Source of the DNA: an uncultured delta proteobacterium
GTDB taxonomy: Bacteria; Desulfobacterota; RBG-13-43-22
Length of the DNA: 64,000 nt
Direction: 5' to 3'
NCBI GenBank assembly: GCA_963843145.1
Contig: CAWJJC010000028.1
Coordinates: 704,001-768,000 of the forward strand
Shown here: positions 29,157-49,793 of the stretch, in pieces
Position numbering within the stretch: the first letter of the stretch is position 1
Layout of the letters: the number at the start of each line of letters is the position of its first letter
Position numbers and translations under genes: made by a program
The notes under the pieces: model-generated
Seen by the model: only the letters and a program-made list of their open reading frames with translations
Told to the model about the DNA's origin: nothing
The model's database searches: none

Positions 29157-29165
29157 ACCTCCTCC

Positions 29166-31706: not shown

Positions 31707-33929
31707 CTAAGTGAACTTCAGGCGGACAGCTCCGGCGGGAAATCCCTCCACAGACAAGATGGGGGACCCGGGATGGTCCGGCCGCGGACAAGGCCACTGC
31801 AGACCGCCTTGTTCCAATCGAGACACGGATAATCCGGCCCAGGCTGGGAGGTTCCGGGCGATTTCATCCAGGGTTTGTTCGGGGGTCAGTCGGGGCCAGG
31901 GGGTCCCCAAGCTGGCGGCCAAGCGGTGCAGAAGATCTCCGGTCCATAACGTTCCCGGTGAGGGCGGGATAGAGGGCTTCAGGAGTTGCACCCGTCTTTC
32001 CACGTTGGTAAAAGTTCCCATTTTTTCGGAGTAGGGTAGGGCCGGGAGGACTAACTCCGCCTGTTCCGCCGCTTCCGAAAGAAAGAGGTCCTGGACGACC
32101 AAAAAGATCCCGGAGGCCTTCAAGGCCGCGGCTTGATCGGGGGAGCAATGGCTGCGACCGGCCGGATCCTCGGCGATGAGCAGCAACCCTTTTAGTTTTC
32201 CAGTCGCGAGGTGGGCCAAAAGATCCAAATTCTCTGGATTGACAGCCCCCAATTCCCAGGCCCCCAGGGTATTGGCTTTAGGCGCCAGGAAGGCCAATCC
32301 GCCGCCGGCTGGCCCCAGGTTTCCGGTGATCAACTGCAGGTTCAGGGCGGATTGAACCAGTTCCCGATCAAAGGGTGTGCCCCCCAGCGGGGGCGGGCAG
32401 ATCAGGGCCAGGGGGCGGTGTTCGACCAGAAAGTCCACAGCCTCTTGAAGCTCTTGGGTTGTCAGCCCCGTCTCTAAGGCGATTGATTCCAAGGTCCGGT
32501 CTGCCAGGGTCGATTTCAAGTCTTCGATCCCGGTGGTCTGCCGTTCAACCAAGGGGGCGTCATAGTGCTGTCCCAGAATCAGGGCGTTCAATAAACCCTG
32601 GATCAGGGCGGCCTCCGTTCCCGGCTTTGGGCCGAGCAAGAGTTCGGCCTGTCGCCGGAAGGTTCGGGGCACCTCATCGATGACCAGCAAGTGGGCGCCT
32701 TTTTGAACGGCCTGGCGAACCTTGATCCCCACTATGGGATGGGTTTCCATGAGTTGCGAGCCCAGCAGGATGATTCCCGCGCTGTTCATCAGATCGTCCG
32801 TCGGGTTGGTCATACCGCTGAGGCCCAACCGTTGAGTCAGCGTTTCCTGCACCGGGGCCCAGATTTCCGAGCCGGCGTGGTCGATCTGGGATGTTCCCCA
32901 GACGGTGCGGGCAAATTTTTGCCAGAGATAAAGTTCCTCGTTGGTCAGCACCGGGGAGAGCCGCAGGCCCAAGGATTCAGGACCGGATTGGGCTATCAGG
33001 GTTTTGGTTTTATCGGCCAGAAATTCCAGGGCCTTTTCCCAGGGAACCTCAGTCCAAGCCCCTGCCTGTTTCAGCAGCGGGGTCTTCAGGCGTTGAGGCG
33101 AATTCAGATAGGCGTATTCAAATCGGCCCTGACGGCAGAGGGCCCCCTGGTTGGCCGGAGAACTGAAATTAGAAGTTATTTTGATCAGTTCCTGATCTTT
33201 GCTATTGAGGTCGAAAACACAGCCGCAACCGCAGAGCGGACAGACGCTCTGGGTCTTGCGCATCTCCCAGTTTCGGCCCCGGCCCCGGGGTAGTTTTTCG
33301 GAGAGGGCATCCACCGGGCAGAGGGCCACGCATTGGCCGTCAAGTTCGCACCCGGATTGGCCCAGGATATTGCCGAAGGCGGTTGAAATCCGTTGATTGA
33401 ACCCCCGGTCGGCTTTAGTCAGCACATGGGCGCACTGCATTTCCGAGCAGGCCCGGATACAGCGCCGGCAGAGTATACACTTGTTCAGGTCCCAATGGAT
33501 ATAGGGATTGGGATCGTGATCCACCGGGTAACTATGGGTTTGTCCGGAGAGAGAACTTTCCTTGATCCCGTATTCATAAGCCAGATCCATCAATTCACAG
33601 CTTCCGGCGGCATTGCAGGTCAGACAATCCAGGGGGTGATCGGAGAGGATCAATTCCAGAACATATTTTCGGGCCTTGATGACCGGATCGGTATCTGTTT
33701 CAATAACCATCCCTTCCCGGGCCGGATAGACACAAGCGGCCACCAGGGAACTCCAGCGCCCACGGACCATTTCCACCACGCAAAGGCGGCAGGATTCCTC
33801 AGGCGGCAGGGCCGGGTGATAACAGAGGGTGGGGATGCGAATATCGGCCTTGCGGGCCGCCGTCAGAATAGTATCCCCGACATCGGCCTCGACGGACCGG
33901 CCGTTGATGGTTAAGTGAATCTTGGACAT
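31707..33929 (-). CDS. NuoG/FdhA-like Fe-S subunit lacking the Mo/W ligand
   Basis: [2Fe-2S] IPTLC..CRLC..C; HPLDCLTC..C; CILCRRCIRAC; CELDGQCVALCP; CPLCGCGC..C; DHAGSEIW replaces the FdhA DxCARxC/UH motif. Confidence 0.85.
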   Translation of the reverse strand: MSKIHLTINGRSVEADVGDTILTAARKADIRIPTLCYHPALPPEESCRLCVVEMVRGRWSSLVAACVYPAREGMVIETDTDPVIKARKYVLELILSDHPLDCLTCNAAGSCELMDLAYEYGIKESSLSGQTHSYPVDHDPNPYIHWDLNKCILCRRCIRACSEMQCAHVLTKADRGFNQRISTAFGNILGQSGCELDGQCVALCPVDALSEKLPRGRGRNWEMRKTQSVCPLCGCGCVFDLNSKDQELIKITSNFSSPANQGALCRQGRFEYAYLNSPQRLKTPLLKQAGAWTEVPWEKALEFLADKTKTLIAQSGPESLGLRLSPVLTNEELYLWQKFARTVWGTSQIDHAGSEIWAPVQETLTQRLGLSGMTNPTDDLMNSAGIILLGSQLMETHPIVGIKVRQAVQKGAHLLVIDEVPRTFRRQAELLLGPKPGTEAALIQGLLNALILGQHYDAPLVERQTTGIEDLKSTLADRTLESIALETGLTTQELQEAVDFLVEHRPLALICPPPLGGTPFDRELVQSALNLQLITGNLGPAGGGLAFLAPKANTLGAWELGAVNPENLDLLAHLATGKLKGLLLIAEDPAGRSHCSPDQAAALKASGIFLVVQDLFLSEAAEQAELVLPALPYSEKMGTFTNVERRVQLLKPSIPPSPGTLWTGDLLHRLAASLGTPWPRLTPEQTLDEIARNLPAWAGLSVSRLEQGGLQWPCPRPDHPGSPILSVEGFPAGAVRLKFT

Positions 33930-33945
33930 GAGTGCTTTCCTTGTC

Positions 33946-34674
33946 TTAGATCATCCCGCAGACCCCGGCGGGACAGCGCTTCTCCCGAAGGTGGGCCTCG
34001 AATTCTTCCCGAAAATAATGAATAATGGCGACGATGATCTTGGAGGTCTTCCCGGCAAAACTGCAATAGGCGGCCTGGGTCATCAGGCTGATGAGGGTCT
34101 CAATTTCCTGGAGGGCGCTCCCGCCGGCCCGGCCCCGGGTTATGGCCTCGACCACCTCTCCTAAACGCTTGATCCCCAATCGACAGGGAACGCACTTACC
34201 GCAGGATTCTTCCGCGTGGAACTGAATCAAATAGCGGGTCATCTGGACCATGCAATAGGAGGAATCCAGGGTCATGATGCATTCGGATTCTTTTTCCCAG
34301 ATCAGATCGCTGCGGATGGATTGTAAAGGATCCAGTCTCAGGATGGGGAAAAGGATTTTTCCTCCTATCAGGGTATCCTTCAGGATATAGGGGATGTGTC
34401 CGGGCTGGACCTGCTGATAAAAAAGGCCCAGTCGGGGAAGACTGACATAGGGGCCCTTCCGGCAGGTCCCGCGGCAGCCTATCTTGGCTGGTTCCAGTTG
34501 CAGGGGAAATTGAAGCCTTTCGGCCTCCTTTTTCAACCCGGCATACAGCGCAAAACTCCCGCAGGGCAATTCCGGTTGATGCCCCCCGCAAACCGTCAAA
34601 TGCGGTTTTTCCACGGGGGTCATTAAACCGAGGGGTTTCTGGGGCTTGGTCGTTCGGGTCAATGGTTCCGCCAT
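33946..34674 (-). CDS. Mini NuoF/HydB-like protein: thioredoxin-like [2Fe-2S] domain plus C-terminal [4Fe-4S] domain, no FMN domain
   Basis: VCGG.....PC...GCRGTC..GP, then directly CMVQM..Y...[14 protein letters not shown]...C...AH..EKRCPAGVC. Confidence 0.8.
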   Translation of the reverse strand: MAEPLTRTTKPQKPLGLMTPVEKPHLTVCGGHQPELPCGSFALYAGLKKEAERLQFPLQLEPAKIGCRGTCRKGPYVSLPRLGLFYQQVQPGHIPYILKDTLIGGKILFPILRLDPLQSIRSDLIWEKESECIMTLDSSYCMVQMTRYLIQFHAEESCGKCVPCRLGIKRLGEVVEAITRGRAGGSALQEIETLISLMTQAAYCSFAGKTSKIIVAIIHYFREEFEAHLREKRCPAGVCGMI

Positions 34675-34683
34675 GATGGTTCG

Positions 34684-37600
34684 TTACTCCGCCAAGTCGC
34701 AGCGCAGGCAGCGTCGGGCCTCGTCCATCGCCTGCTTCTCGCTGAGACCCAATTCGGCCTCCTGAAAATTCGTTGACCTTTCCTTGACCGGGACCAGGCC
34801 CATCTCCGGGCGATCCGCAGGGAGGGCTTCCCCTTCGGGAACGATCGCTTTTTCCAACCGCAACCGGGGCTTGGAGGCTGGGAACTTATTTTCCTGGCCG
34901 GAGAGAAAGTTGTCGATTGACCAGGCGGCCCGTTTGCCGACGGCCACGGCCTCAATCACTGAAGCCATCCCGGAAATCAGGTCCCCCCCGGCGAAGACAC
35001 CTGGAATCTGGGTTTGCAGGGTTTCTGGATCCACAGCCAGGGTCTGTCCGCCGGTTACCGCCAGGGGAGCGATGGGGGACAGGAAGGAAAGATCCGGCTT
35101 CAGACCCACGGCGGTAATCACCATCTCGGCCGGCAGAATGAACTCCGTGCCTTCCTGGGGCAGGATCCGCCGGCGTCCGCTGGTATCGGTGCTTAGCGGT
35201 TCAAGCCGCAGGCACTCCAGGCCGCTCACCCGATGATTTTTGGCGATGATTTTTGTGGGGGTGGTCAAGAAATGAAACTGCACTCCTTCCTCCCGGGCCG
35301 CCCTGAGCTCCAGGGGATCGGCCGGAAGATCCTCCTCCGTGCGCCGGTAGACCAGATGGACCGTGGCCCCCAGGCGGATCGCCGCCCGGGCGGCATCGAC
35401 GGCCTCATAGCCGCCGCCGACCACGGCCACCCGCTTTCTGGCCAGGGGCTCAGGGGAGTCGTTGACCTTTTTGAGAAAATCCAAGGCGTCCATGATCCCC
35501 TCGTAGAGGTTTTCTCCGAAGACGCCCATCTCCAGTCCCTGATGGGCACCGGTGGCCAGGAAGAGGGCTTCATAGCCCTCGTTCTTCAACTGCTCCAGGG
35601 AGAGATCTTTCCCGACCGGGGTCTGGGTCTTGACTTCGATTCCCAGGGCCAGGATATACTGAATATCCCGCTGGAGATGCTCCCGGGGAAGACGGAATTC
35701 CGGAATGGCCAAAGCCAACATCCCTCCCAGGACCGGGGAGGCCTCGAAGAGGGTAACCGGATAGCCTTTTTTGGCCAGAAAATAGGCCGCGGACAATCCA
35801 GCCGGCCCCCCGCCCACTACGGCCACTTTTTGCGATCGGGTTTTCGGAACCGGCGGGGGCAGGACCAGAGGCCGGGTACCTTCGAAATCGGAAATGAAAC
35901 GTTTAAGCTGCATGATGGCGATGGGAGAATCCACCTCGCCCCGGGTGCAGGTGACCTCGCAGCCATGATTGCAGATACGGCCGCAGACGGAAGGGAAGGG
36001 GTTGTCGGCCCGGACGATTTCCAGGGCTTGCTCGTAATGGCCGGAGGCGGTCAGGGCCACGTAACTGGCCACATCAATCCCGGCCGGACAACCTTTCTGG
36101 CAGGGGGCGGCCGCCAGGCGCCGGCAGACGCCGGCCGGGCATTCCTTATCCCGGATGTGGGCCTCGTATTCCTCCCGGAAGTATTTGATGGTGGACAGGA
36201 CCGGGTTGGCCGACGATTTGCCCAGTCCGCAAAGGGCCGCCTCGGTGATGGTCCCGCCCAAGGCCTGCAGCCGTTCGATATCGCCTTCCTTTCCCTGACC
36301 TTGGCAGATGCGGGTCACGATCTCATGCATGCGCTTGACCCCCAACCGGCAGGGCACGCACTTGCCGCAGGACTCTTCCTCCAGAAAGTGCAGAAAATAA
36401 CGGGCCATATCCACCATGCAGGTTTCTTCGTCGAGGACGATCATCCCCCCGGAACCCATCATGGAACCGGCTTCTTTTAATTTTTCGTAATCCACCGGAA
36501 GGTCAATCAGGGCGTTGGGGATACAGCCCCCCGAGGGGCCGCCGGTTTGGACCGCTTTGAATGTTTTGCCCTTGGGAATGCCCCCGCCGATCTCGTAAAT
36601 AATCTTCCGCAGCGGGGTGCCCATGGCCACTTCCACCAAGCCGGAGTTGTTTATTTTCCCCACCAGAGAGAAAATCTTGGTCCCCTTACTGCGCTCAGTG
36701 CCGATGGAGGCATGCCAAGCCCCGCCTTGGTTGACAATCAGGGGAACGGTAGCCCAGGTTTCGACGTTGTTCAGGTTGCTCGGACGGTTCCACAGCCCCT
36801 TTTCGACCGTATGGATATGTTTGCCGCGCGGTTCCCCCACCTTCCCCTCCAGGGAGGCCATGAGGGCGGTGGATTCTCCGCAGACGAAAGCCCCGGCCCC
36901 GCGGGTGACAAAAATTTCCAGGCTGAAGGGGGTGCCCAGAATATTCCGGCCCAGAAGCCCCAATTCTTTAGCCTGCTGGATGGCCCAGAGGGCATTTTTT
37001 GTGGCCAGGGGGTATTCATAACGGCAGTAAATGTAGCCTTCCACGGCCCCGATGGCATAGGCCCCGATAATCATTCCCTCAATGATTTGATGGGGATTTC
37101 CCTCCAGGAGCGCCCGGTCCATATAGGCCCCGGGGTCCCCCTCGTCGGCGTTGCACATCACATATTTAATGGCGCCTTTGGCCTTCCGGCAGGATTCCCA
37201 TTTGGTCCCGGTAGGAAAACCGCCCCCCCCTCGGCCCCTGAGGCCGGAAAGCTTGATTTCTTCGATGAGTTCTTCGGGTGTCGCCTCGGAGAGGGCCTTG
37301 ACCAGTCCGGCATACCCGCCCCGGGAGATATAGTCCTCGATATCCGAATAGTAAGTTCCTGCCGGAGTCCCGAGAGACGATCTGTTCCTGGTTGGCGTAA
37401 AACGGAAGGTCCGCTTCGTGAACGATTTTCTTTCCGTCGGCCGGGTGGGTGTAGAGGAGTTTTTCGATGATTTCCCCGCCGATCAGCGTCCGCTCCACGA
37501 TCTCGGGGACATGGCGCAGACGGAGTTTTTCATAAAAGATGTTTTCCGGTTCAATTACGGCAATCGGACCCCGGGAGCAAAAGCCATGGCAACCGGTGGG

Positions 37601-37792
37601 AGTGACCCAGAATTCCTCCTGCAGCCCCTTTTCAACTATCAGGTCCTGGAGGGCCTTGGCAATCGCTTCTCCCGCATGGGAAGCACAGGCCGGTCCAGCG
37701 CAGACCCGAACCCGTTTCTTTATCCGCTCCCGGCGTTTGAGAATATCCTGGCGGAAGATTTCCAGCTCTGCGGGATTATTAAGACGATTCAT
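34684..37792 (-). CDS. nuoF: NuoF/HydB-like flavoprotein fused to a GltD/NfnB-like FAD-NADPH domain; +1 frameshift near 37355
   Basis: CAGPAC..GCHGFC; [13 protein letters not shown]; [14 protein letters not shown]; GAGAFVCGE; GGPSGGC; ESCGKCVPC; then [46 protein letters not shown]. Confidence 0.9.
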
Positions 37793-37802
37793 GGTGGTTC
37801 GG

Positions 37803-38294
37803 TTAGCCCTCTTTCTTTACTAATTCTTTGATCAATTCGCAAACTTTGTTGGGAGTCATCTCACTGTGCGTATCATCATTTACCCGGACAATCGGGGCCG
37901 AAGCACAGGCACCGACGCAGTTGACCGTCTCCAGCGTAATGGCCAGGTCCGTCGTGGTCTCACCGGGTTTCAAATGCAGTTCTTTGTCCAGACACTCAAT
38001 CAAACGCTGGGCCCCTTTGACGTGGCAGGCCGTCCCGGTGCAGACATGGACCAGAGTCCGCCCGCGGGGGGTGAGGCTGAAGACTTTAAAAAAAGTCGCT
38101 ACACTGAAAACCTGACTGATGGGCAGTTTCACCTGTCCGGCCACCCAAACCAGGCTTTCCTGAGGCAGGTAATGAAAATGCTGGTTGATATCCAACAGGA
38201 TTTGAAGGACCGAGGCTGGCCGCGCCCCTTGTTCGGCCACGATGGCCGAAAGCGTTTGCAGGTCCTTTTCCGAAAGTTGTTTTTCGACTGCCAT
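37803..38294 (-). CDS. nuoE: NuoE/HydC-like [2Fe-2S] subunit
   Basis: VATFF..F...PRG...VCTGTACHVKG...VNCVGACASAP. Confidence 0.93.
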   Translation of the reverse strand: MAVEKQLSEKDLQTLSAIVAEQGARPASVLQILLDINQHFHYLPQESLVWVAGQVKLPISQVFSVATFFKVFSLTPRGRTLVHVCTGTACHVKGAQRLIECLDKELHLKPGETTTDLAITLETVNCVGACASAPIVRVNDDTHSEMTPNKVCELIKELVKKEG

Positions 38295-38312
38295 AATTAA
38301 ATGTCCATTCTC

Positions 38313-39740
38313 TTAGGAAATGAGGCTCTTACAGGCCGTTCGGGCCAGATCGAAGAACCAGGTGGGGAGCGTCCCCAAAAGAATGATGGCCAGGATCAAA
38401 CCCACGTTCAATAGTTTGCCGGAGAGCGTCAAGGAAATATTCGGCCGTTCGTCCGGATCCTGCCCGTAGGCCGAGCGGACCATATTTAAGTAGAAGAAAA
38501 TGGAGATGGCCGTATTGACGGCGGCGAGGATCACCAGCGCCAGGTGGCCCGCCTTTAAGGCGGCGGTAAATAGAAAAAGTTTTCCGGTAAAACCGGCCGT
38601 GGGAGGGATGCCGGCCAGAGCAAAAGCGCCCACCGCCAGGGTAAAAGCCAGGAGCGGCGACCGTTTATAGAGGCCGGAGAGGTCGGCCAGGCTGATATTC
38701 TCCCCCTGCCGGGAGATGAAACAGATGACCGAGAAACAGGCCAAGTTCATCAGCAGGTAGGCGGTCATATGGAAAAAAGCAGCGGCATAGCCATTGCTGT
38801 TCAACGTCAAAACGCCCAGGAGTATATATCCGGCATGGGCAATGCTGGAATAGGCCAAGAGGCGTTTAATATCCCGCTGGACCAGGGCCACCAGGTTGCC
38901 GAAGGTCATGGAAACCGCCGCCAACAGGACCAGGATCTGAACCAGGTCGAGGTTGTCGGGACCGCCCAGACTGACCATTCGCAGCAGCAGGGCCAGGCCG
39001 GCGAGTTTAGGCATGGTGGCGATAAAGGCGGTGGTTTCGTTGGCCGCGCCCTGGTAGACGTCGGGCGTCCAGAAATGGAAGGGGATTACCGCCAGTTTAA
39101 AGAAGAAACCGCTGAGCACCAGGAGCAGACCGACTACGCCCAGGGGGTGGGTCAAGACCAGGGGCAATTTCTGGATGATCACCGTGAGGTAGGTGGATTG
39201 GGTCAGTCCGAAGAGATAGCTCATGCCGAAGATCATGACCCCGGTGGCGGCGGCCCCGAAAATGATGTATTTGATGGCCGCTTCCATCTGGTGCCCGGAA
39301 TTCTGCTTTCGCAGAGGAATCAGGATATAGAGGGAATAGGAGGACAGTTCCATGGCGACAAAGATGGTCAGAAGTTCCACGCTGCTGACCAGGAGCGTCA
39401 AACCCAGGGAGCTTAAGACCATCAACATGAAATATTCGGGATGGAGTCGGTCGTCGATACTTATTAAATCACGACCGATAAAGATTACCAGGAAGAGCCC
39501 GAGCTGAATCAGGACCTTGAAGGCCTGGGAAAAGAGGTCCACCCGATAGGCGTGATAAAAAAGCTCGCCGGATAAGGGGAGAGACAAAACGCTGATCGCC
39601 ACCCCGGCGGCCGATAGCCAGAGGGCCAACAGATGGGTCACCCGGACCGGCGATGGCCATAAGGATCGGACAAAGAAAAGCAGGGCCAAAAAGAGTAGAT
39701 AGAGCTCCGGTAAAAATAGTTTAAGGTCCGATAATCCCAT
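38313..39740 (-). CDS. nuoN: Complex I subunit N
   Basis: ELSS...Y.L, EAAIKY, FKLAVIPFHFWTPDVYQGA, KRLLAYSSIAHAGY. Confidence 0.92.
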   Translation of the reverse strand: MGLSDLKLFLPELYLLFLALLFFVRSLWPSPVRVTHLLALWLSAAGVAISVLSLPLSGELFYHAYRVDLFSQAFKVLIQLGLFLVIFIGRDLISIDDRLHPEYFMLMVLSSLGLTLLVSSVELLTIFVAMELSSYSLYILIPLRKQNSGHQMEAAIKYIIFGAAATGVMIFGMSYLFGLTQSTYLTVIIQKLPLVLTHPLGVVGLLLVLSGFFFKLAVIPFHFWTPDVYQGAANETTAFIATMPKLAGLALLLRMVSLGGPDNLDLVQILVLLAAVSMTFGNLVALVQRDIKRLLAYSSIAHAGYILLGVLTLNSNGYAAAFFHMTAYLLMNLACFSVICFISRQGENISLADLSGLYKRSPLLAFTLAVGAFALAGIPPTAGFTGKLFLFTAALKAGHLALVILAAVNTAISIFFYLNMVRSAYGQDPDERPNISLTLSGKLLNVGLILAIILLGTLPTWFFDLARTACKSLIS

Positions 39741-39789
39741 TTCTTATTCCATCCCAGGTCCTGTAATTGCTTTCCAGAGAAAAGGTTTC

Positions 39790-41301: not shown

Positions 41302-41327
41302 GCTTTTCTATCCACCCTGTTCCTTGC

Positions 41328-43085
41328 TCAGGTTAAAAGATAAACACCTACGATGGCAAAAATCGCCACCAGGGCCAGGGCCAGGTAATATTGAAGATTA
41401 CCGCTCTCGACGACGCGGATCTTTTCCCCCACTCCTCGGGTCCCGTAGGCTACATTATCCACCACGCCATCGATGCCCCAGCGGTCAAACCAGGCAAAAA
41501 AGCGGGCCAGGGACATTAAGATCCGCAGGACCACGGTCCGGTAAAACTCCCCCCAGGCCTGATCCAGACCTTGCAGGGGACGACGGGCGAACCAGAAAAA
41601 ACCGGAAATAAGGCCTCGTACGAAAAAGTCGAAATCCAGGTTAATCTTGCCTTCCGGCGCCAGCTTTTTGACCAGCAAAAAGAAACCCAGGCCGGTAAAG
41701 AGCAGGATCTGGACGGTTTCCGAAAGGTGATAGGACGAATAGGGATTGAACTCCACCGGGTAGGGCAGCAGCTCATAGAGGGCCCGGGGATACACGCCGA
41801 TGATCAGGCAGAGGAGGGAGGTCAACCCCATGGCCCAGAGCATATTCTTAGGCGGTTCCTTGGGCCTCAGGCCGCAGTCCTTGCCGAACCAGGCGAAATA
41901 CGGCAGCTTCAACCCCACGGACAGAAAGGTGCCCACCGAGGCCAGCAGGAGCAGGAGCATCAGGTTCGGATGATGGGCCTCCCCGGCCCCGGCGATGACC
42001 AGGGACTTGCTGACGAAGCCGCTGAACAGGGGAAACCCCGAAATGGATATCCCGCCCACCACATAAAAAATCAGGGTTAAAGGCATGTACTTGTACAGGC
42101 CGCCCAGTTCGTTTAACTTCGAACGCCCGGTCATCTGCAGCACCGCGCCGGCTCCCATGAACAGCAGGGCCTTGTAGAGAATATGAGCATAGGCATGGGC
42201 GCAGGCCCCGTTGAGGGCCAATTCCGTACCGATCCCCACCCCGGCCACCATGTAGCCCACCTGGCTGATAATGTGGTAGGCCAGGATACGGCGCATATCG
42301 TTTTCAATGGTCGCGTAGATGACGCCGTAGATGGTCATGACCGTGCCCATAATGGCCAGCACCTCGTAGCCGGGGAAGCCCCGGGCCAGCACATAGACGG
42401 CTGTCTTGGTGGTGTAGGCGCACATAAAGACGGCGCCGGTCACCGTGGCCTCGGGATAGGCATCGGGCAGCCAGGCGTGAAGCGGGAAGACTGCCGCGTT
42501 CAAGCAAAAGCCGGCCAGAATGAGATACTGGGCCAGTCCGGCCCCGGCCTCCGGGATCAGGATGAAGGCCATGCTGCCGGTCTGCTGATAATTGAGCACG
42601 ATCCCGGCCAGGAGCAACAGCCCGCCGAAGACGTGCCAGAGGAGGTAGCGGAAGCCGGCCCGGATCGAGACCGGGACCCGGCGGGCCCAGATCAGAAAGA
42701 CCGAACCGAAGGCCATCATCTCCCAGAAGATGAAGACCGTCAGAAAATCCCCGGCAAAGGTGACGCCCAGGGAACCGCCGATATAGAAGCAGGCCGCCAC
42801 CTGCTGCCCGGGATCTTTTATGTGCAGTCCGTAAAGGAACCCGAGGATGGACATGAGGGTGAAGACATGGGCGAAGATGATGCTCAGCTTGTCCACTCGG
42901 CCGACGACGATCTCAAAGCCCAGGTAGTGGAAGCCGCCGTAGACCCCGGGGGTCATGGTCAGCACATCCAAGAAGGCCAGGGCCGGAAGGACCAGCAGGT
43001 AGATCTGCCGCAGGCGGCCGGGCAGCAGGGGAATCAGCAAGGCCCCAAAGATATAAATCAGACCCGGGTGGATCCAGTTATCCAT
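41328..43085 (-). CDS. Mrp-type antiporter-like subunit with a C-terminal NuoL/MrpA-like arm
   Basis: FWEMMA, NAAVFPLHAWLPDAYPEA, TTKTAVY, RRILAYHIISQVGYM; C-terminal FDRWGIDGVV...SGNLQYY plus a terminal TM helix. Confidence 0.85.
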   Translation of the reverse strand: MDNWIHPGLIYIFGALLIPLLPGRLRQIYLLVLPALAFLDVLTMTPGVYGGFHYLGFEIVVGRVDKLSIIFAHVFTLMSILGFLYGLHIKDPGQQVAACFYIGGSLGVTFAGDFLTVFIFWEMMAFGSVFLIWARRVPVSIRAGFRYLLWHVFGGLLLLAGIVLNYQQTGSMAFILIPEAGAGLAQYLILAGFCLNAAVFPLHAWLPDAYPEATVTGAVFMCAYTTKTAVYVLARGFPGYEVLAIMGTVMTIYGVIYATIENDMRRILAYHIISQVGYMVAGVGIGTELALNGACAHAYAHILYKALLFMGAGAVLQMTGRSKLNELGGLYKYMPLTLIFYVVGGISISGFPLFSGFVSKSLVIAGAGEAHHPNLMLLLLLASVGTFLSVGLKLPYFAWFGKDCGLRPKEPPKNMLWAMGLTSLLCLIIGVYPRALYELLPYPVEFNPYSSYHLSETVQILLFTGLGFFLLVKKLAPEGKINLDFDFFVRGLISGFFWFARRPLQGLDQAWGEFYRTVVLRILMSLARFFAWFDRWGIDGVVDNVAYGTRGVGEKIRVVESGNLQYYLALALVAIFAIVGVYLLT

Positions 43086-43326
43086 AAAAATCCTCCCGCC
43101 GGCCGAGAATGGTGTGGGCCAGACCCTTACTCACCCGAATCAAAACGATGCAGCCCACGAATCCAAAGACGGCCCAAAATCCCGGGATCCGATCTCCAAA
43201 AAAATGCGCTTCATAACGGGGGACCAGGAAATCAAAGACAATGGCCAGACCCATGAGGGCGTAGAGAAAAATCTTCAGGCCCTTTAGACGATTTCGTAAA
43301 AAATCCATCGGTTCGGCCCAGTTCAT
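43078..43326 (-). CDS. Small two-TM protein linked to the Mrp subunits
   Basis: HFFGDRIPGFWAVFGFVGC...LGRREDFY; overlaps both neighbouring genes. Confidence 0.75.
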   Translation of the reverse strand: MNWAEPMDFLRNRLKGLKIFLYALMGLAIVFDFLVPRYEAHFFGDRIPGFWAVFGFVGCIVLIRVSKGLAHTILGRREDFYG

Positions 43327-44789
43327 CGGAGCACCACCTTGATGATATTCATAAAATAATCGGGATAAAGGCCTAACAGCACCGAGGCCAGGGCCGTCAG
43401 CAGCAGCGGGACCACCATGAAGGCCGGGGCTTCGTGATAGCCCCGGCCCTCCGGGGGTTTTTCGAAGTAGGCCTTATAGAGGATGGGAGCGAAATATCCG
43501 GCATTGAGAATGGTGCTGCCCAGGAGGAAAAAAAGGAGGGAGGGGGCCTTGGCCTCCAGGGCGCCGAGGAGCAGGTACCATTTGGTCACGAAGCCACAGA
43601 CCAAAGGCACGCCGATCATGCTTAAGGAGGCCACGCCGAAGGCACCCATGGTAAAGGGCATGGTCCGGCCGGCGCCGCTCAGGTCGCTGATCTTCTTGGT
43701 GTGCAGGGCCACGTAGATGGCGCCGGCGCCCATGAAGAGGGTGATCTTGGAAAAGGCGTGGTTGACGATATGGATCAGCCCGCCGGCGATCCCGCTGGGG
43801 GTCAGCAAGGCCACACCCAGGACGATATACGACAACTGGCTGACCGTGGAATAGGCTAGTCGGGCCTTGAGGTCGTCTTTGGTCAGGGCGATCACCGAGG
43901 CGGTGACAATGGTGATGCCGGCGAGGAAAGCGGTGGGCAGGCCCAGATGCAGGTGGTCCAGCAGGTTTACCCCGAAGACGGAGAGCATGACCCGGCAGAT
44001 ACAGAAGACGCCGGCCTTGACCACGGCCACGGCATGGAGCAGGGCGCTGACCGGGGTAGGGGCCACCATGGCCGAAGGCAGCCAGTTATGGAGGGGCATG
44101 ATGGCCGCCTTGGTCAGACCGGCAATGTAGAAGATGTAGATAACGGTCACCAGCAGCGGGTTGGCGTCGGCCGGAAACATCCCCTGGGCGATCCCCACGG
44201 GGAAATCCAGGGTACCGGTCAGGACATAGGTCAGGATAATGGCCGGCAGCAGAAAGGCCTTGGCCGTGCCGGTCAGATAGACCATGTACTTGCGGGCCCC
44301 TTCAAAGGCCTCGGCGTCCTGATGATGGGCGACTAACGGATAGGTGTAGATGGTAATGAGTTCGTAAAAGAGATAAAAACTGAAGAGGTTGCCGGAAAAG
44401 GCCACGCCCACGGCCCCGACGATGGCGACGGCAAAACAGTGGTAGTAGCGGGTCTGGGCGTGCTCCTCCAGGGCACGCATGTAGCCGATATTGTAAAAGG
44501 AGACCAGGATCCAGAGAAAGGAGGAAATGGTGGCGAAAATCATCCCCAGGGCGTCCACCCGGAACTTGAAGCTGATTCCCGGCAGGATAACGAAGGGGGT
44601 GCATTCGATCATCTTCCCGGCCAGGATCTCCGGAGTCATGGAGAGGACGGTCAGGAAAGTCACCACGGCCCCCAGGACGGACCAGGCCTCCCGGAGATTG
44701 GGCTTTTTCCCGGAGGCCATGATCAGGATGGCGGTCAGGGAGGCGATCAAGACCGCAATGAAAGGTTTGCTGGAGTAGATGATGTCCAT
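43323..44789 (-). CDS. MrpD-family antiporter-like subunit
   Basis: FYELIT..TYPLV.H, KAAIMPLHNWLPSAMVAPTPVSALLHAVAVVKAG, LKARLAYSTVSQLSY; no long amphipathic arm (488 aa). Confidence 0.87.
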   Translation of the reverse strand: MDIIYSSKPFIAVLIASLTAILIMASGKKPNLREAWSVLGAVVTFLTVLSMTPEILAGKMIECTPFVILPGISFKFRVDALGMIFATISSFLWILVSFYNIGYMRALEEHAQTRYYHCFAVAIVGAVGVAFSGNLFSFYLFYELITIYTYPLVAHHQDAEAFEGARKYMVYLTGTAKAFLLPAIILTYVLTGTLDFPVGIAQGMFPADANPLLVTVIYIFYIAGLTKAAIMPLHNWLPSAMVAPTPVSALLHAVAVVKAGVFCICRVMLSVFGVNLLDHLHLGLPTAFLAGITIVTASVIALTKDDLKARLAYSTVSQLSYIVLGVALLTPSGIAGGLIHIVNHAFSKITLFMGAGAIYVALHTKKISDLSGAGRTMPFTMGAFGVASLSMIGVPLVCGFVTKWYLLLGALEAKAPSLLFFLLGSTILNAGYFAPILYKAYFEKPPEGRGYHEAPAFMVVPLLLTALASVLLGLYPDYFMNIIKVVLR

Positions 44790-44803
44790 GGTCTCGGAGA
44801 CGC

Positions 44804-45112
44804 CTATCCTTTCAGTTCGCTGACGGTGTCCACCCGGATTTCCTTGAACCGGCGGTAGACGGCAATGATGATGCTCAGGGCAATGGCCGCTTCGGCGGCG
44901 GCCACCCCCATGATGAACAGGGTAAAGATTTGACCTACCGTCGGGTCAGGGGTCAAGAACATATTAAAGGCCATAAAATTCAAACCGGCGCCATTAAGGA
45001 TCAGTTCGGTGGCGATCAACATGCCGATCAGGGAGGTGTGCTGCAACAGACCAAAAATTCCGATGCAGAACATCAGGGCGCCTAAAACCAGGTAGCTAGA
45101 CAGGCTTTCCAT
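44804..45112 (-). CDS. nuoK: Complex I subunit K
   Basis: ELILNG...NF, GQIF.LF...VAAAEAAIAL. Confidence 0.93.
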   Translation of the reverse strand: MESLSSYLVLGALMFCIGIFGLLQHTSLIGMLIATELILNGAGLNFMAFNMFLTPDPTVGQIFTLFIMGVAAAEAAIALSIIIAVYRRFKEIRVDTVSELKG

Positions 45113-45114
45113 GG

Positions 45115-45654
45115 CTACTTCCTTTCCCGGCCCAAGGCCAGGTTGGTGATCAGGATCGCCCCGATGATGGCCACGACCAGCAGGAGGGAGATCAATTCAA
45201 AGACCAGAAAGTACCGGGTCAGCAAGGCCTGCCCGAGGCTCTTGGTGGTCCAATCACGGGCTGGAGCTGCCCAGGGAGCCCATTGGGCGTTGAGGATCAT
45301 TTGGATTATGGCGATGAAAGCAATAACGCTGACGACCAAGGCCACGACCACCTTGGTAAGAGAAGGTTTTCTTAAGTCCAAATCCAAAGGTGGAGAAAGC
45401 ATGATGGCAAAAATATAGGTAACGCAAATGGCCCCCACATAAATCAATAATTGCATCATGGCCACAAATTGGCTTCCTAAAAATAGATAAATCCCGGCTA
45501 TGCCGAACATGGCCTGGGCCAGCCCCAGGACGTTGTGGACGATTTTTGAGGGAATTACGGCCAGTACTGCACCGGTCAGGGTAATAAAAATCATAATCCA
45601 GAAGGCCACTTGGGCCACCAGGATCGGCGGTATGAAATCTGCAATGGTATTCAT
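45115..45654 (-). CDS. nuoJ: Complex I subunit J
   Basis: QLLIYVGAI, LG..L...Y.L.FELIS.LL..AIIGAI. Confidence 0.92.
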   Translation of the reverse strand: MNTIADFIPPILVAQVAFWIMIFITLTGAVLAVIPSKIVHNVLGLAQAMFGIAGIYLFLGSQFVAMMQLLIYVGAICVTYIFAIMLSPPLDLDLRKPSLTKVVVALVVSVIAFIAIIQMILNAQWAPWAAPARDWTTKSLGQALLTRYFLVFELISLLLVVAIIGAILITNLALGRERK

Positions 45655-46112
45655 CGGCTTTTCTCTAAGCGCCCCATGATATCTATCACCGTATCCCAAC
45701 GGGAATAAAAGACCAACTCGTATTCCTTGGAGAATTTAAGCGTTTGTTTCGGGCAGAGATCGACGCACAAGCCGCAAAGGCTGCACTTGGAAAAATCAAT
45801 ATAATAGCGATATCCGTATTTCAAGCCCCCGGCCCTGGCTTTCCCCCCCTGGACTTTAATGACATGGGAAGGGCAGACGCGCGCGCATAGGCCGCAAGCC
45901 ACGCAATGATGGGTCTTGGTGTCGTCAAAGCGGATGGCTTCGATGTGTCCCCTGAAATTGGGGGTCATGGTCAGTTTCTGCCGGGGGTATTGGACCGTCA
46001 CAATGCGGGTGAAAAGACGTTTCAAGGTGATCCACAGCCCGACTACCAGGCTCTTGCCACCCGTTAGGATCTCCTCAAAGTACTGAATAAAGGCATTGGG
46101 GGGGGTATTCAT
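45651..46112 (-). CDS. nuoI: Complex I subunit I (2x[4Fe-4S])
   Basis: TVQYP...FRG, CVACGLCARVCP, CSLCGLCVDLCP. Confidence 0.93.
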   Translation of the reverse strand: MNTPPNAFIQYFEEILTGGKSLVVGLWITLKRLFTRIVTVQYPRQKLTMTPNFRGHIEAIRFDDTKTHHCVACGLCARVCPSHVIKVQGGKARAGGLKYGYRYYIDFSKCSLCGLCVDLCPKQTLKFSKEYELVFYSRWDTVIDIMGRLEKSR

Positions 46113-46113
46113 C

Positions 46114-47112
46114 TTAAATAACCTTAAGGACAATGGCGGTAATCAGAAGATTGACCAAGGCAAAGGGGATCAGGACCTTCCAGGCGAAATTCATCAGTTG
46201 ATCGAAGCGGATTCGGGGATAAGTCCAGCGGGCCCACATGACCACGAAGATCAGAAAATAGGTTTTAATCAGAAACCAGATCATTCCTGAGAAAAAAGGT
46301 CCGTACCAGCCCCCCAGGAAAAGGACCGTAAACATGGAGGCGGCTATGACCATATTGGTATATTCCGCCAGAAAGAAGAGCGAAAAACGCATACCGGTAT
46401 ATTCGGTATGAAAGCCGGAAACCAGCTCCGATTCGGCCTCCACCAGATCAAAGGGTGCCCGGTTGGTTTCAGCCGTGGTGGCAATGAAAAAGATAAGGGC
46501 GGCAATGGGCTGATAGAAGATAAACCAAAGGGAAGACTGCGCCCGGACGATATCACCCATTTTAAAGGTGTTGGTCATGATAATGACCGACATGGTGGCC
46601 AAGAGCAAGGGGATCTCATAGGCCACATTCTGGGCCACCGACCGGATGGCGCCGATCAGGGAATATTTATTATTGGAGGACCATCCGGCCATCAGGATCG
46701 AGATGACGGAAATACTGGAAAAGGCAAAGATGAGCAGGATGCCGACATTCACATCCTTAACCTGCATCAGCGGGCTGAAAGGGATCGGCACAAAACCGAC
46801 AAAGGCCGGAGCGACGACAATGATGGGGGCCAGAAAGAAGATCAATTTGTCGGTGGATTGCGGGGTGACCAATTCCTTGCCCAGCAGTTTCACGGCGTCG
46901 ATCAGGGTCTGGAGTATTCCATGAGGTCCGACTTCCATCGGCCCGGGCCGGAGCTGGATATGGCCGGCCACTTTACGTTCTACCAGGACCAGGAAAGCGA
47001 CGTTTAGTGGAACAATAGCGGCAATGATCAGCAGTCCGACAATGCCGGCCGTGACGTCGGAGCCCAGGAAAGCATAAATATCTTTGAGGTAGGGAAGTTG
47101 GGTAATATTCAC
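46114..47112 (-). CDS. nuoH: Complex I subunit H
   Basis: [50 protein letters not shown]. Confidence 0.95.
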
Positions 47113-48236
47113 CGATCAATCTCCGGAACGGTCACATCGATACTCCCGAAAATGGCGATGACATCAGCCAGGAAATGTCCCGGACAGATCTCGGTCAGGA
47201 CGAATAAATTAGAAAAGGAGGGGGCCCGCACCTTGATACGATAAGGGACCCGGGACCCGTCGCTGACGATATAAAAACCCACGGCTCCGCGAGCGCTCTC
47301 AAAGGTGCAATAATAATCGCCTTCCGGCGGGGTGACAAACATGGGCACCTTGGCCCGGATCGGTCCCGGAGGGAGATGGTCCAGGGCCTGCTCGATGATG
47401 TTCAGGCTTTGCTCCATCTCGGCCATTCGGACCTGATAACGGGCCAGGCAATCTCCGGCTTCTCGGGTTGGAATCTCGAACCTAAACTCCGGATAGGCCG
47501 AGTAGGGTTCCTGCTTGCGGACATCATAGGCGACCCCGGAACCTCGCAAGGTCGGACCGGTGACCCCATATTCCAGGGCCACTTCCTTGGTAATGACGCC
47601 CACGTCCTGAGACCGCTTGATAAAGATGATATTTTGGTTGATCAGATTTTCGTAATCCCAGAACCGGCCGCGCAACCGATCGATAAAGCGGCGGGTCCCG
47701 TCATAAAATTCCTTGGTAATATCGTTGCGAACCCCGCCAAAACGACCGTAACTGTAGGTCAGGCGGGAACCGGTTATCCCTTCTAAAAGATCCAGAATAT
47801 GTTCCCGATCATCCCAACCCCAAAGAAAAGGGGTGATGGCCCCGAGTCCCATGGCGTAGTCCATGGCCCCGATGAAATGGCTGGCGATGCGGTTCAATTC
47901 CGAGGTGATGACCCGGATGTATTCCGCCCTTCGAGGGACCTCGATGCCGCAGAGTTTTTCCACGGCCATACAATAGCCGTGGTTAAAGATCATGCCGGAA
48001 AGATAATCCATCCGGGCCGGATTGGGCAGAAATTGTTCATAGGTCCGGTTTTCGGCCATTTTTTCATGGCCTCGGTGGGAGTAGCCGATGATTGGTTCTA
48101 CTTTGATCACCACTTCCCCATCGAGGGTCACCAAGAGGTGCATGACCCCATGGGTGCTGGGGTGCTGAGGGCCAAGGTTGAGTTGATAGACCCGCTGGTC
48201 GATAGAGGTATCGTCTATGGTTTTAGGGTTCAGCAT
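47109..48236 (-). CDS. nuoD: Complex I subunit D
   Basis: [30 protein letters not shown]-terminal EIDR; no NiFe CxxC pairs. Confidence 0.95.
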
Positions 48237-48724
48237 AGGATGTCGTCTATCTCAGTGGTAAATTTGGTCTTGCCGAAATTCTTTAACAACGGAAAATATT
48301 CCGCATCATCGGGATTGATGATGCGTTTGAGGTCCGGGTGTCCTTGAAAGCGGATTCCGAAAAAATCGTAGACCTCCCGCTCCAGCCAGATGGCCTCGGG
48401 ATAGATGTCCCAGACGCTGAAGGGCCTGATCTCCCGGAGAAGTTTGACGCGGGCCATTACCCGGAAGCAGGCCTCGTGGTAAGTGCTGAATAAATAGATC
48501 AGGTGAAAATATTCCAAAAAATCCACGGCCGTAACGGTTTCCAGGAAAAAACGCCTATCTTTCATCTCCCGCGCCACCCGGCGCATGCCGCGCATGATCA
48601 GCCGCACTTCCAGGTGATAGCCGCATTCCCGGTAATCCCGGTCATGCAGTTCAGCCTCGGGAATTACCTGAAGCAGACTATTTCTTACGTTTTCGAGCGG
48701 CTTTGTCGGCTCTGCGGTTGGCAT
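48230..48724 (-). CDS. nuoC: Complex I subunit C
   Basis: [30 protein letters not shown]. Confidence 0.9.
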
Positions 48725-49244
48725 CTATGATTCCCTTGGTAATCTTGGTTTGTATCTTTATAAATCCCTGGAGCAGGGCCTCCGGTCGAGGGGGGCACCC
48801 GGGGATATAGACATCCACCGGGATAATTTTGTCCGCCCCATTGACGATAGCGTACTGCCCGTCATAAGAAAAAGGCCCTCCGGAGATGGCGCAGTTACCC
48901 ATGGCAATAACATAGCGGGGGGCCGGCATCTGATCATAAAGGGTCTTGATGGTCGAAACCAGTTTATGGGGTATGGTTCCGGCCACCACCATGACATCGG
49001 ATTGCCGAGGAGTGCCTCGAGGAATGATGCCGAATCGGTCCCAGTCAAACCGGGCCACCCCGGCGGCCATCATTTCGATGGCGCAACAGGCGATCCCAAA
49101 AGTCAGGGGCCAGAGGGCATTGACCCGGGCCAAATCCAGGAGATCCTGCACGGGGGCAAAGCCCACCACTGCCGGGCTTTCCACATAATCCTGGGAAAGG
49201 TCCCTGGAGGGGATGCAAATTGGAACGTTTCCCTTTACCTCCAT
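48678..49244 (-). CDS. nuoB: Complex I subunit B
   Basis: [41 protein letters not shown]. Confidence 0.95.
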
Positions 49245-49618
49245 CGGAAGGCTCCTTTACGCCAGGCATAGACAATGGCCAAAGATATTAAAAAGAGAAA
49301 GATAAACAACTCGAGCAGCTCGAAAGCTCCCGTTCCTCTTTGATAGGCCATGAGGACCGGAAAGAGATAGAGCACATCTACATCGAAGGCCAGAAAGATC
49401 AAGGCAAAAAGGTAGTAGGAGGCCCCAAACTGCATCCAGGCCGTCCCGATAGGAGGCATCCCGCTTTCGTAGGTCACCAGCCTTTTTTCTCCATAGATCC
49501 GGGGACCGAGCACGAAATTGATGACCACCATGGAGAGGGGTAATATCAGGCCAAAAAAGAAGAATATGAAGACAAACAAGAATTCACCGAGGCCGGCTTG
49601 TACCATCTGGGAAAACAA
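49235..49618 (-). CDS. nuoA: Complex I subunit A
   Basis: [30 protein letters not shown]. Confidence 0.92.
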
Positions 49619-49764: not shown

Positions 49765-49793
49765 AATCTAAATAAGGCCGGGGGAAGTGTCAA
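49765..49793 (-). promoter_or_regulatory. Putative sigma70 promoter of the complex I operon
   Basis: Minus strand TTGACA-N17-TAGATT upstream of nuoA. Confidence 0.6.

Follow-up and report, generated by a model that had tools for sequence, protein, structure and literature searches.

Introduction

How does a complex I receive its electrons when the genes at the end of its operon encode a flavoprotein set other than the usual NuoEFG? An operon from an uncultured soil-dwelling delta proteobacterium of the Desulfobacterota raises this question. The operon lies in a stretch of 64,000 nucleotides (hereafter the window; GenBank assembly GCA_963843145.1, contig CAWJJC010000028.1, positions 704,001 to 768,000), in which 17 genes on the minus strand, from window position 49618 to 31707, encode the membrane arm and quinone-reducing core of a complex I together with four proteins that we call E, F::GltD (or F), miniF and G. 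This work asks whether these four proteins serve as the head through which electrons enter the membrane complex.

Both halves of this arrangement are published designs, and their combination is new. The membrane arm is, to judge from its subunits, the already published 'green complex I', in which, in the description of Yu et al., two MrpD-like subunits replace NuoL, a design credited to the 2016 work of Degli Esposti and Martinez-Romero in the accounts given by PMC9040806 and PMC7415380. Complexes I with four pumps are likewise already in print (PMC9040806). The Bfu family was defined by Schut et al. 2022, whose main text predicts a membrane-bound 'Nuo-Bfu' with BfuABC in place of NuoEFG and menaquinone as the acceptor, proposes confurcation of NADH and reduced ferredoxin to supply the energy that NADH alone lacks, and presents co-expression data in Geobacter, with Geobacter sulfurreducens as an example (PMC9304861). 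That main text, supplements aside, mentions neither GltD nor a fusion. What is new here is a BfuB::GltD protein encoded in a nuo operon behind a green-type arm, and miniF. Our searches turned up no publication that describes a green-type arm bearing a Bfu or GltD head, and none about BfuB::GltD or miniF, again with the supplements of PMC9304861 aside. The preliminary description of this DNA had known of no characterised enzyme with the whole combination, and the literature indeed yielded none; however, the green arm has been published and Nuo-Bfu has been predicted (PMC9304861). The earlier interpretation was therefore reasonable but largely anticipated by two published lines of work.

Results

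A green-type complex I operon ends in a Bfu-type flavoprotein set

A Pfam scan and the list of open reading frames (ORFs) give the gene order nuoABCDHIJK-X1-s82-X2-nuoM-nuoN-E-F::GltD-miniF-G, with neighbouring genes spaced by -49 to +49 base pairs (bp). All the genes that the preliminary description had placed in a tightly packed operon at 31707-49618 were found, on the minus strand and with gaps of at most 49 bp. Its further claims of four antiporter-like subunits without a canonical nuoL, of an intact NuoD quinone site (HPSTH and RMDY) and of an extra pump derived from Mrp were also borne out, by Pfam and a tree, by the motifs and their invariant residues, and by orthologues of X1 and X2 in an mrp operon, respectively. 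The gap between nuoN and E is 18 bp long, and a promoter and terminator scan detected no terminator-like site in it. Among the sequencing data sets listed for this DNA, none is recorded as RNA, and no contig spans nuoN and E in a manner informative for transcripts. The genes behind nuoN are as follows.

37803..38294, minus strand: E, a HydC/BfuC-like [2Fe-2S] subunit (PF01257, 2Fe-2S_thioredx, 151 bits)
34684..37792, minus strand: F::GltD, a HydB/BfuB-like flavoprotein with a GltD-type domain, broken by one extra base at 37344/37345
33946..34674, minus strand: miniF, 242 amino acids (aa), a HydB remnant with no flavin mononucleotide (FMN) domain (Pfam NADH_4Fe-4S only)
31707..33929, minus strand: G, 740 aa, a NuoG/BfuA-like Fe-S subunit (Fer2_4, NADH-G_4Fe-4S_3, Fer4_Nqo3, Molybdop_Fe4S4, Molybdopterin)

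E, F and G are, by their domains and closest relatives, Bfu-type proteins: HydC-like, HydB-like and dead-FdsA-like, as in Stn/NfnABC. The eight best solved relatives of E are HydC, NfnC and similar proteins (141-99 bits), whereas the 24-kDa subunits of complex I score at most 97 bits. E is also 40% identical to three HydC-like paralogues in the host genome, against 26% to the canonical NuoE of that genome; E and G are 26-28% identical to the host's canonical NuoE and NuoG. F begins with a thioredoxin-like [2Fe-2S] domain, as HydB does and which the preliminary description did not mention, and continues with Complex1_51K (FMN/NADH), SLBB, NADH_4Fe-4S (N3-type), Fer4_20 and Pyr_redox_2. The GltD-type part would hold two 4Fe-4S clusters, flavin adenine dinucleotide (FAD) and NAD(P)H. 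Compared with chains of solved structure, the FMN part of F reaches 517-474 bits against HydB from bifurcating hydrogenases and against the B subunits of NfnABC-type enzymes, and 297 bits against Thermus Nqo1; the GltD part scores 382-307 bits to NfnB and to the NuoG/GltD fusion subunits of NfnABC-type enzymes. The four InterPro domains that Schut et al. employ include a C-terminal ferredoxin-type 2 x [4Fe-4S] domain of BfuB; in F, the HydB match ends at residue 350-360 of an 825-aa ORF, where Fer4_20 of the GltD part begins. Three more HydC/HydB pairs in the host genome are 57-70% identical to the FMN part of F. Given a one-base skip in F, the predicted proteins contain the B1-FMN-C1 'flavobicluster' of the Bfu family, that is, the FMN, SLBB and N3 domains of BfuB with the [2Fe-2S] domain of BfuC.

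G scores 379 bits to FdsA, versus about 170-200 bits to complex I NuoG, and aligns to FdsA over residues 3-736 with all Fe-S motifs kept. Where FdsA has its active-site Cys-His, G has Ile-Trp, and it stops about 150 residues short, lacking the C-terminal molybdopterin-binding domain. Given these losses, G can serve only as an Fe-S and scaffold subunit, as NuoG and StnC do. We considered G as an active formate dehydrogenase (FDH), which the Ile-Trp pair and the missing molybdenum-binding domain rule out, and E-F-G as a canonical N-module, which is ruled out by the higher scores to HydC, HydB and FdsA than to complex I chains. The genes named nuoE, F and G in the preliminary description are thus present, but they are of the Bfu type rather than canonical NuoEFG. 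The domains and motifs agree with its HydABC-like head with an FMN/NADH site and an FAD/NADPH site; the GltD site is predicted to be of the NAD(P)H type. Here we take PDB entry 8oh5 to be StnABC.

How does this set compare with known enzymes? FdsABG, an FDH dependent on NAD (PDB 6tg9, 9wxb), provides the subunit that G matches from end to end, including the Fe-S motifs, but the Cys-His and the molybdenum-binding domain of FdsA are absent from G. The Stn/NfnABC enzymes, as described in PMC10482914 and PMC11829005 (PDB 9n5u), share the HydC/HydB-like core, a GltD-like FAD/NADPH domain and an inactive FDH-like domain. They differ in that their GltD domain lies within the NuoG-like subunit (StnC/NfnA), whereas here it is C-terminal on the HydB-like subunit and G has none; they are also described as soluble tetramers, with no adjacent membrane genes and no miniF. 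Nuo-Bfu, in the main text of PMC9304861, is likewise a complex I cluster in which a HydABC-like module replaces NuoEFG, menaquinone is the proposed acceptor and confurcation is considered. There, the cluster has 14 genes (A-N), BfuABC in the middle and three antiporter-like subunits. In the window, BfuABC also lies inside the nuo operon, though at its 3' end, around miniF, rather than between D and H; BfuB carries a GltD domain, and there are four antiporter-like subunits.

The F::GltD gene is frameshifted in this assembly

F::GltD is read as two ORFs in different frames, of 208 aa (37166-37792) and 825 aa (34684-37161). Relative to two related loci, L001 and L002 (L and G are our labels for loci and genomes), the window has one extra base at 37344/37345. 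With one base skipped, the frame is open for 1035 codons and is 73% identical, end to end, to the intact 1039-aa gene of L002; the FMN loop and the N3 cysteines are all present in it, as are the glycine motifs for FAD and NAD(P)H. L002, L007 and G005 each have an unbroken F gene. The intact nuoF::gltD gene of the preliminary description is therefore a real fusion in the relatives and is split by a one-base insertion in this assembly. In L001, which is from the same genus, F is broken elsewhere, at a run of eight G (L001:15850-15930), and six other operon genes (B, D, I, K, X2 and G) give split hits, a sign that the assembly of L001 contains homopolymer errors of the long-read kind. None of the four DNA contig sets that we compared with the window covers 37256-37369. 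On balance, the evidence leans towards an assembly error in the window as well.

miniF accompanies the arm in one clade

miniF aligns to two separate parts of HydB, its [2Fe-2S] domain at the N-terminus (residues 6-90) and its helical 4Fe-4S domain (residues 432-539); the stretch between them is missing. Among 5.8 billion proteins, 78 clusters have at least 50% identity to miniF, after which identity drops to 34% and the rest are HydB pieces. In the source records, its relatives go by the names '(2Fe-2S) ferredoxin' or 'hypothetical'. Across 50 sequences, eight cysteines, four in each of two groups, do not vary, and neither do C141, C234, H153 and H228. We dropped 80 metagenome loci as candidate miniF relatives, since their matches extend only over residues ~112-242 (the N3-type domain), as those of HydB genes do.

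miniF follows nuoN in all 19 Desulfobacterales-type loci that extend past nuoN (L020, in which nuoN is cut at residue 77, is outside this count). What lies behind it varies. In 12 of the 19 loci, queries with the window proteins detected no further related gene behind miniF, and in L004, L006, L010, L011 and L019, which were scanned with Pfam, the genes there are unrelated. Three loci (L001, L002 and L007) resemble the window in having E and F before miniF and G after it. The other four (L013, L015, L016 and L026) have a [2Fe-2S]-GltD-formate dehydrogenase fusion behind miniF, which would represent a probably active FDH module, linked to NADPH, at the end of a complex I operon. L015 is Desulfobacterium sp. 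N47. In L016 (L016:16111-20238), the fusion of ~1370 aa follows nuoN, miniF and a small ORF and is read as 830 + 540 aa; an in-frame TGA falls exactly at the selenocysteine position (CARL-U-HS). Outside the Desulfobacterales-type clade, E, F, miniF and G occur in none of the 20 loci that extend past nuoN. Thus, miniF appears to be a small Fe-S protein specific to this clade and is a possible adaptor.

How closely is the flavoprotein set tied to nuo?

The order of the host is represented by 21 genomes of one family and four genera. An orthologue of F (at least 74% identity) is encoded in five of these genomes, which span three genera, and stands behind nuoN and E in all five; miniF and G follow F in all four whose contig continues. 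The synteny comparison that the preliminary description had proposed thus recovers the N-E-F order in 5/5 orthologue-bearing genomes, alongside the arm order described below.

Full-length F::GltD paralogues with 46-54% identity are found at 22 loci in 17 of the 21 genomes, and neither nuoN nor miniF lies within 1.5 kb of any of the 22. Two of these loci, both clusters of soluble type, were examined more closely. In L189 (G017 C42), F::GltD is preceded by a HydC-like gene, a HATPase-like gene and a 124-aa gene and followed by a 572-aa NuoG-like gene and, at the contig end, a PF01058 gene, which belongs to the NuoB / NiFe small-subunit family. In L190 (G013 C31), F::GltD is accompanied by an intact FdhA and MetV/MetF-like genes. 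All of the 120 best-listed F relatives have a GltD-type domain, and all but one (a 725-aa piece) also have an FMN domain; their sources span many phyla of bacteria and archaea, and the names given to them are NuoF or FAD-dependent oxidoreductase. F::GltD is thus a widespread BfuB form, apparently uncharacterised, that pairs with differing partner modules.

The membrane arm is of the green complex I type

Two MrpD-like subunits, X1 and X2, stand between nuoK and nuoM in place of NuoL, with a small membrane protein between them.

43323..44789, minus strand: X1, 488 aa, Mrp-like antiporter subunit 1 (PF00361 and PF00662; NuoL/MrpA-type N-terminus, no lateral helix)
43078..43326, minus strand: s82, an 82-aa membrane protein with two hydrophobic segments by hydropathy (no Pfam match)
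41328..43085, minus strand: X2, 585 aa, Mrp-like antiporter subunit 2 (PF00361; NuoL-like C-terminal lateral helix and anchor helix)

No one protein here has the make-up of canonical NuoL: Proton_antipo_N is on X1 and the lateral helix on X2. The best solved relatives of X1 are MbhH, MbsH, NdhF, NuoL and MrpA. Residues 64-581 of X2 align to Thermus Nqo12 69-603, and the best fold matches of the X2 model are MrpA, NdhF and NuoL over 630-670 columns. X2 has no hydrophobic segment between residues 472 and 567; its model places helices at 486-501 and 504-553 and a terminal helix at 564-584, in a region where model confidence is only 47-72. When we aligned 17 nuo-linked and 11 non-nuo X2 proteins, 20 residues of this C-terminal amphipathic stretch of the nuo-linked copies were missing from 10 of the 11 non-nuo copies, the exception being L072. 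These extra residues fit the idea, put forward in PMC9040806, that addition of a pump is accompanied by a longer lateral helix.

In a tree of 21 antiporter-like proteins with support from the Shimodaira-Hasegawa-like approximate likelihood ratio test (SH-aLRT), the X1 clade (SH-aLRT 96) and the X2 clade (SH-aLRT 100) each hold rhizobial, Desulfuromusa and Campylobacterales copies. This phylogeny, which the preliminary description had suggested, places X1 and X2 with the rhizobial and mrp-operon copies and M and N in the NuoM and NuoN clades. None of the four antiporter-like proteins of the operon groups with the canonical NuoL of the same genome.

An X1-small-X2 trio in the same order follows mrpD in a Campylobacterales mrp operon (L067:4302-11695), which has mrpE, F, G, an MnhB-type gene, mrpC and mrpD and no redox subunits; its antiporter-like subunits thus number three, MrpD and the X1- and X2-like proteins. 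Its X1 and X2 are 44% and 42% identical to the window copies, and its X2 is ~20 residues shorter. The trio is therefore derived from Mrp. We also considered X1 and X2 as a recently split NuoL, which is ruled out because both have orthologues in an mrp operon. The window operon is not itself an Mrp antiporter operon: MrpB, E, F and G are absent from it and present in L067. About 20 loci of Alphaproteobacteria, Campylobacterota and Verrucomicrobiota (L051-L072) have the trio without nuo genes. The small protein s82 has counterparts in 53 loci, among them mrp-type loci and S. meliloti, whose 84-aa protein is annotated 'hypothetical'.

A search of plasmid proteins with X2 detected Sinorhizobium and Rhizobium replicons at 56-57% identity. 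The order on S. meliloti pSymA is nuoJ, nuoK, 487 aa, 84 aa, 586 aa, nuoM, nuoN and then nuoA-G, with the 487-aa protein annotated as 'antiporter subunit D family', the 84-aa protein as hypothetical and the 586-aa protein as 'antiporter subunit D'. Thus, the window arm resembles the rhizobial green complex I in sequence (X2 is 56% identical, and X1, X2, M and N group with the rhizobial copies) but not in layout. The rhizobial cluster is rearranged to J-K-...-N-A-B-C-D-E-F-G and encodes canonical NuoEFG, whereas the window operon is colinear from A to N and has the Bfu-type set with miniF after nuoN. The rhizobial green complex I uses ubiquinone. A different route to four pumps is taken by the '2M' complex I of Nitrospira, which, like Complex_I_3 of Ca. 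Manganitrophus, is described as having four (or five) antiporter-like subunits and a lengthened lateral helix (PMC9040806); the Nitrospira enzyme gained a second NuoM and kept NuoL, which in the window operon is replaced.

The order A-K-X1-s82-X2-M-N recurs in L001-L050 and L073, where contigs allow. The carriers are metagenome-assembled genomes of Desulfobacterales type, Desulfobacterium sp. N47, Desulfonema, Syntrophorhabdus, Desulfuromusa kysingii DSM 7343 and Ca. Adiutrix, and the arm, as identified from these predicted genes, is widespread in Thermodesulfobacteriota.

The complex I core

The ten core genes, A, B, C, D, H, I, J, K, M and N, all exceed their curated Pfam cut-offs.

49235..49618, minus strand: nuoA (PF00507, 96 bits)
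48678..49244, minus strand: nuoB, the cluster N2 carrier (PF01058, 99 bits; CC, GNC and GCPP cysteine motifs readable)
48230..48724, minus strand: nuoC, separate from D (PF00329, 94 bits)
47109..48236, minus strand: nuoD with the quinone-site His/Tyr (PF00346, 315 bits)
46114..47112, minus strand: nuoH (PF00146, 409 bits)
45651..46133, minus strand: nuoI, two 4Fe-4S clusters (Fer4 families)
45115..45699, minus strand: nuoJ (PF00499, 114 bits)
44804..45112, minus strand: nuoK (PF00420, 78 bits)
39790..41301, minus strand: nuoM (PF00361, 263 bits, and PF01059; M clade in the tree)
38313..39740, minus strand: nuoN (PF00361, 230 bits; N clade in the tree)

NuoD keeps HPSTH and RMDY, with H25, H29 and Y78 invariant across 26 aligned sequences, and the two CxxCxxCxxxCP motifs of NuoI are present, with eight cysteines invariant in 34 sequences. 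We take these His, Tyr and Cys residues, and the N2 cysteines of NuoB, to be the ones that define the sites. NuoC is 164 aa long in 16 relatives. Syntrophorhabdus-type arms (L024-L048 and L073) have a fused nuoCD gene (~524 aa), as against two separate genes (164 + 375 aa) in the Desulfobacterales type.

Genomic setting and host

Directly upstream of nuoA lies ribF (FAD synthetase / riboflavin kinase; window 49838-50767, minus strand), in a position that is the same in 11 related loci, some of which have operons encoding no flavoprotein. At the other end, a PAS/HAMP histidine kinase and a sigma-54-dependent response regulator (window 27804-31610, minus strand) lie 96 bp beyond G. One promoter-like match precedes nuoA.

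49765..49793, minus strand: sigma-70-like match TTGACA-17-TAGATT, 5' of nuoA (10/12 positions; weak evidence)

Over the whole region, eight sigma-70-like matches were observed versus 9.7 expected from shuffles, so there is no excess; because promoter and terminator counts are not above those of shuffles, they are uninformative on internal transcription signals. Three one-mismatch matches to the sigma-54 consensus occur in the window, at chance level, none of them near the nuo operon.

The host genome is 98% complete and encodes dsrAB; the organism looks like an organotrophic or hydrogenotrophic sulfite/sulfate reducer. No rnfC above cut-off was detected in this 98%-complete genome, and a menA-like gene scores just under its cut-off. 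A second, ordinary complex I is encoded at G000 C20:182825-197426 (L188), in the order nuoA, fused nuoBCD (818 aa), canonical E, F, G, H, I, J, K, a 624-aa NuoL, M and N. Two different complexes I are thus encoded in the same organism. The genome also encodes a 1290-aa StnC-like [2Fe-2S]-GltD-FdhA fusion (G000 C9:20613-24485) and an FdsA-like gene read as 395 + 556 aa (G000 C28:66034-68904), possibly another selenocysteine split.

Discussion

Are E, F, miniF and G the electron-input head of the complex I with which they share an operon? By analogy with Nuo-Bfu, we propose that they may be attached to the membrane complex in this way, the most likely of the readings considered here, though at about even odds. 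The core would be an 11-subunit-type menaquinone reductase in which X1, X2 and the 82-aa protein replace NuoL, and this family, which belongs to an uncultured order of Thermodesulfobacteriota, would have recruited a Bfu-type flavoprotein set to the operon's 3' end. NADH would enter at the FMN and NADPH at the FAD, with reduced ferredoxin as a possible further donor. From there, the Fe-S chain of G, of miniF or of both would carry the electrons to NuoI, NuoB and menaquinone, and their flow would be coupled to ion translocation by the four antiporter-like subunits. Paralogous F::GltD proteins are paired with further catalytic modules, and by analogy the Nuo complex would be the catalytic partner here.

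What could drive such an enzyme? With the potentials given in PMC9304861 (NADH -280, NADPH -380, ferredoxin -500 and menaquinone -74 mV), we calculate that two electrons passed to menaquinone yield ~40 kJ from NADH, ~59 kJ from NADPH and ~82 kJ from ferredoxin, and that mixed donors yield ~61 kJ (NADH + ferredoxin) or ~71 kJ (NADPH + ferredoxin). Five ions moved at 150 mV cost ~72 kJ, five ions per electron pair being a published hypothesis. A four-pump, menaquinone-linked enzyme is therefore sensible with ferredoxin-level donors, with a confurcating head or in reverse, and makes little sense as a plain NADH dehydrogenase. In a host with dsrAB, no rnfC above cut-off and a menA-like gene near its cut-off, a ferredoxin-oxidising, quinone-reducing pump would fill a gap.

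Several points weigh against an attached head. The case for attachment rests on synteny and analogy, and the five genomes with the N-E-F order are close kin (F identity 74-100%), so that the order may only reflect descent. Sixteen of the 19 Desulfobacterales-type loci have neither E nor an orthologue of F, and since the arm of most relatives comes without E, F and G, it needs no such head. G is closer in sequence to FdsA than to any complex I NuoG. E, F::GltD and G include everything that an Nfn-type Bfu transhydrogenase needs and could be soluble. Because the ~40 kJ from NADH falls short of ~72 kJ, plain forward oxidation of NADH at full stoichiometry is unlikely. Finally, F is frameshifted in this assembly.

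It is quite possible, if somewhat doubtful, that E, F::GltD and G, perhaps joined by miniF, make up a soluble transhydrogenase of the Nfn-type Bfu kind (NADPH, NAD+ and ferredoxin) that is merely co-transcribed with the arm. Ferredoxin or a diffusible miniF would link the two, and the membrane complex would oxidise ferredoxin (or miniF) and reduce menaquinone. Stn/NfnABC enzymes are reported to be soluble and to bring together a core like HydBC, a GltD-like domain for NADPH and an FdhF-like domain that is inactive (PMC10482914, PMC11829005), and the window proteins strongly match their chains. Moreover, the HydB::GltD fusion is very common outside nuo operons, the 22 paralogue loci in 17/21 genomes have no nuoN or miniF nearby, most lineages have a head-less arm, and with no rnfC above cut-off a ferredoxin-oxidising membrane complex would be needed in any case. 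However, the F orthogroup (at least 74% identity) is found only beside nuoN, in all five genomes. The window cluster also lacks the HATPase-like gene of the paralogue clusters and has miniF and a larger, dead-FdsA G instead, and the further catalytic module that is paired with paralogous F::GltD would be missing here.

A broader version of the attached-head proposal is more speculative, and we regard it as rather unlikely. The Desulfobacterales-type green complex I would be a plug-in platform on which miniF serves as the docking and electron-entry subunit for lineage-specific modules: nothing in most lineages, a selenocysteine FDH fused to GltD in the N47/Desulfonema type and a full Bfu core in the family of the window. 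The head in the window would confurcate NADPH (and/or NADH) with reduced ferredoxin at ~70 kJ per electron pair, about the cost of the fifth ion, and the enzyme would amount to an Nfn counterpart that pumps ions and is linked to quinone.

Which way the electrons flow is a question separate from that of attachment. An improbable answer, raised as reverse electron transport in the preliminary description, is that the complex works mainly in reverse, with an ion-motive force driving electrons from menaquinol to NAD(P)+ and/or ferredoxin and the fourth pump supplying the extra energy. In energetic terms, ~40 kJ (NADH) or ~59 kJ (NADPH) is less than ~72 kJ at 150 mV, which would put the equilibrium on the reverse side, and the same argument is in print for the five-pump complex of Ca. 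Manganitrophus (PMC9040806). Nevertheless, an apparent sulfite/sulfate reducer with dsrAB needs electrons to flow into the quinone pool, the stoichiometry of four antiporters is a hypothesis rather than a measurement, and confurcation with ferredoxin would make the forward direction feasible.

Least credible, and in our view very unlikely, is that the head is decaying in this strain through a real frameshift in F, so that the FMN/NADH site is lost and the complex works like its head-less relatives: the extra base splits the gene ahead of the FMN loop and outside any long homopolymer, and F of L001 is broken too, but the frame stays open for 886 codons past the shift with 73% identity and all its motifs kept, unlike drift after inactivation, the L001 break lies elsewhere in the company of six other split genes, as is typical of long-read errors, and F is intact in three relatives.

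Why does this locus matter? It touches the question of how strict anaerobes with a low-potential menaquinone pay for ion pumping by complex I, as well as that of what supplies electrons to the many complexes of sulfate reducers and syntrophs that lack NuoEFG. It also links three ideas that have been discussed separately: extra pumps, Bfu-type confurcating heads and entry of NADPH via GltD. If the head is not attached, the operon would encode an ordinary soluble transhydrogenase co-regulated with a ferredoxin-oxidising complex. With the head attached, the enzyme would be the first complex I to have an NADPH site built in and would offer a natural test of whether driving force matches pump number.

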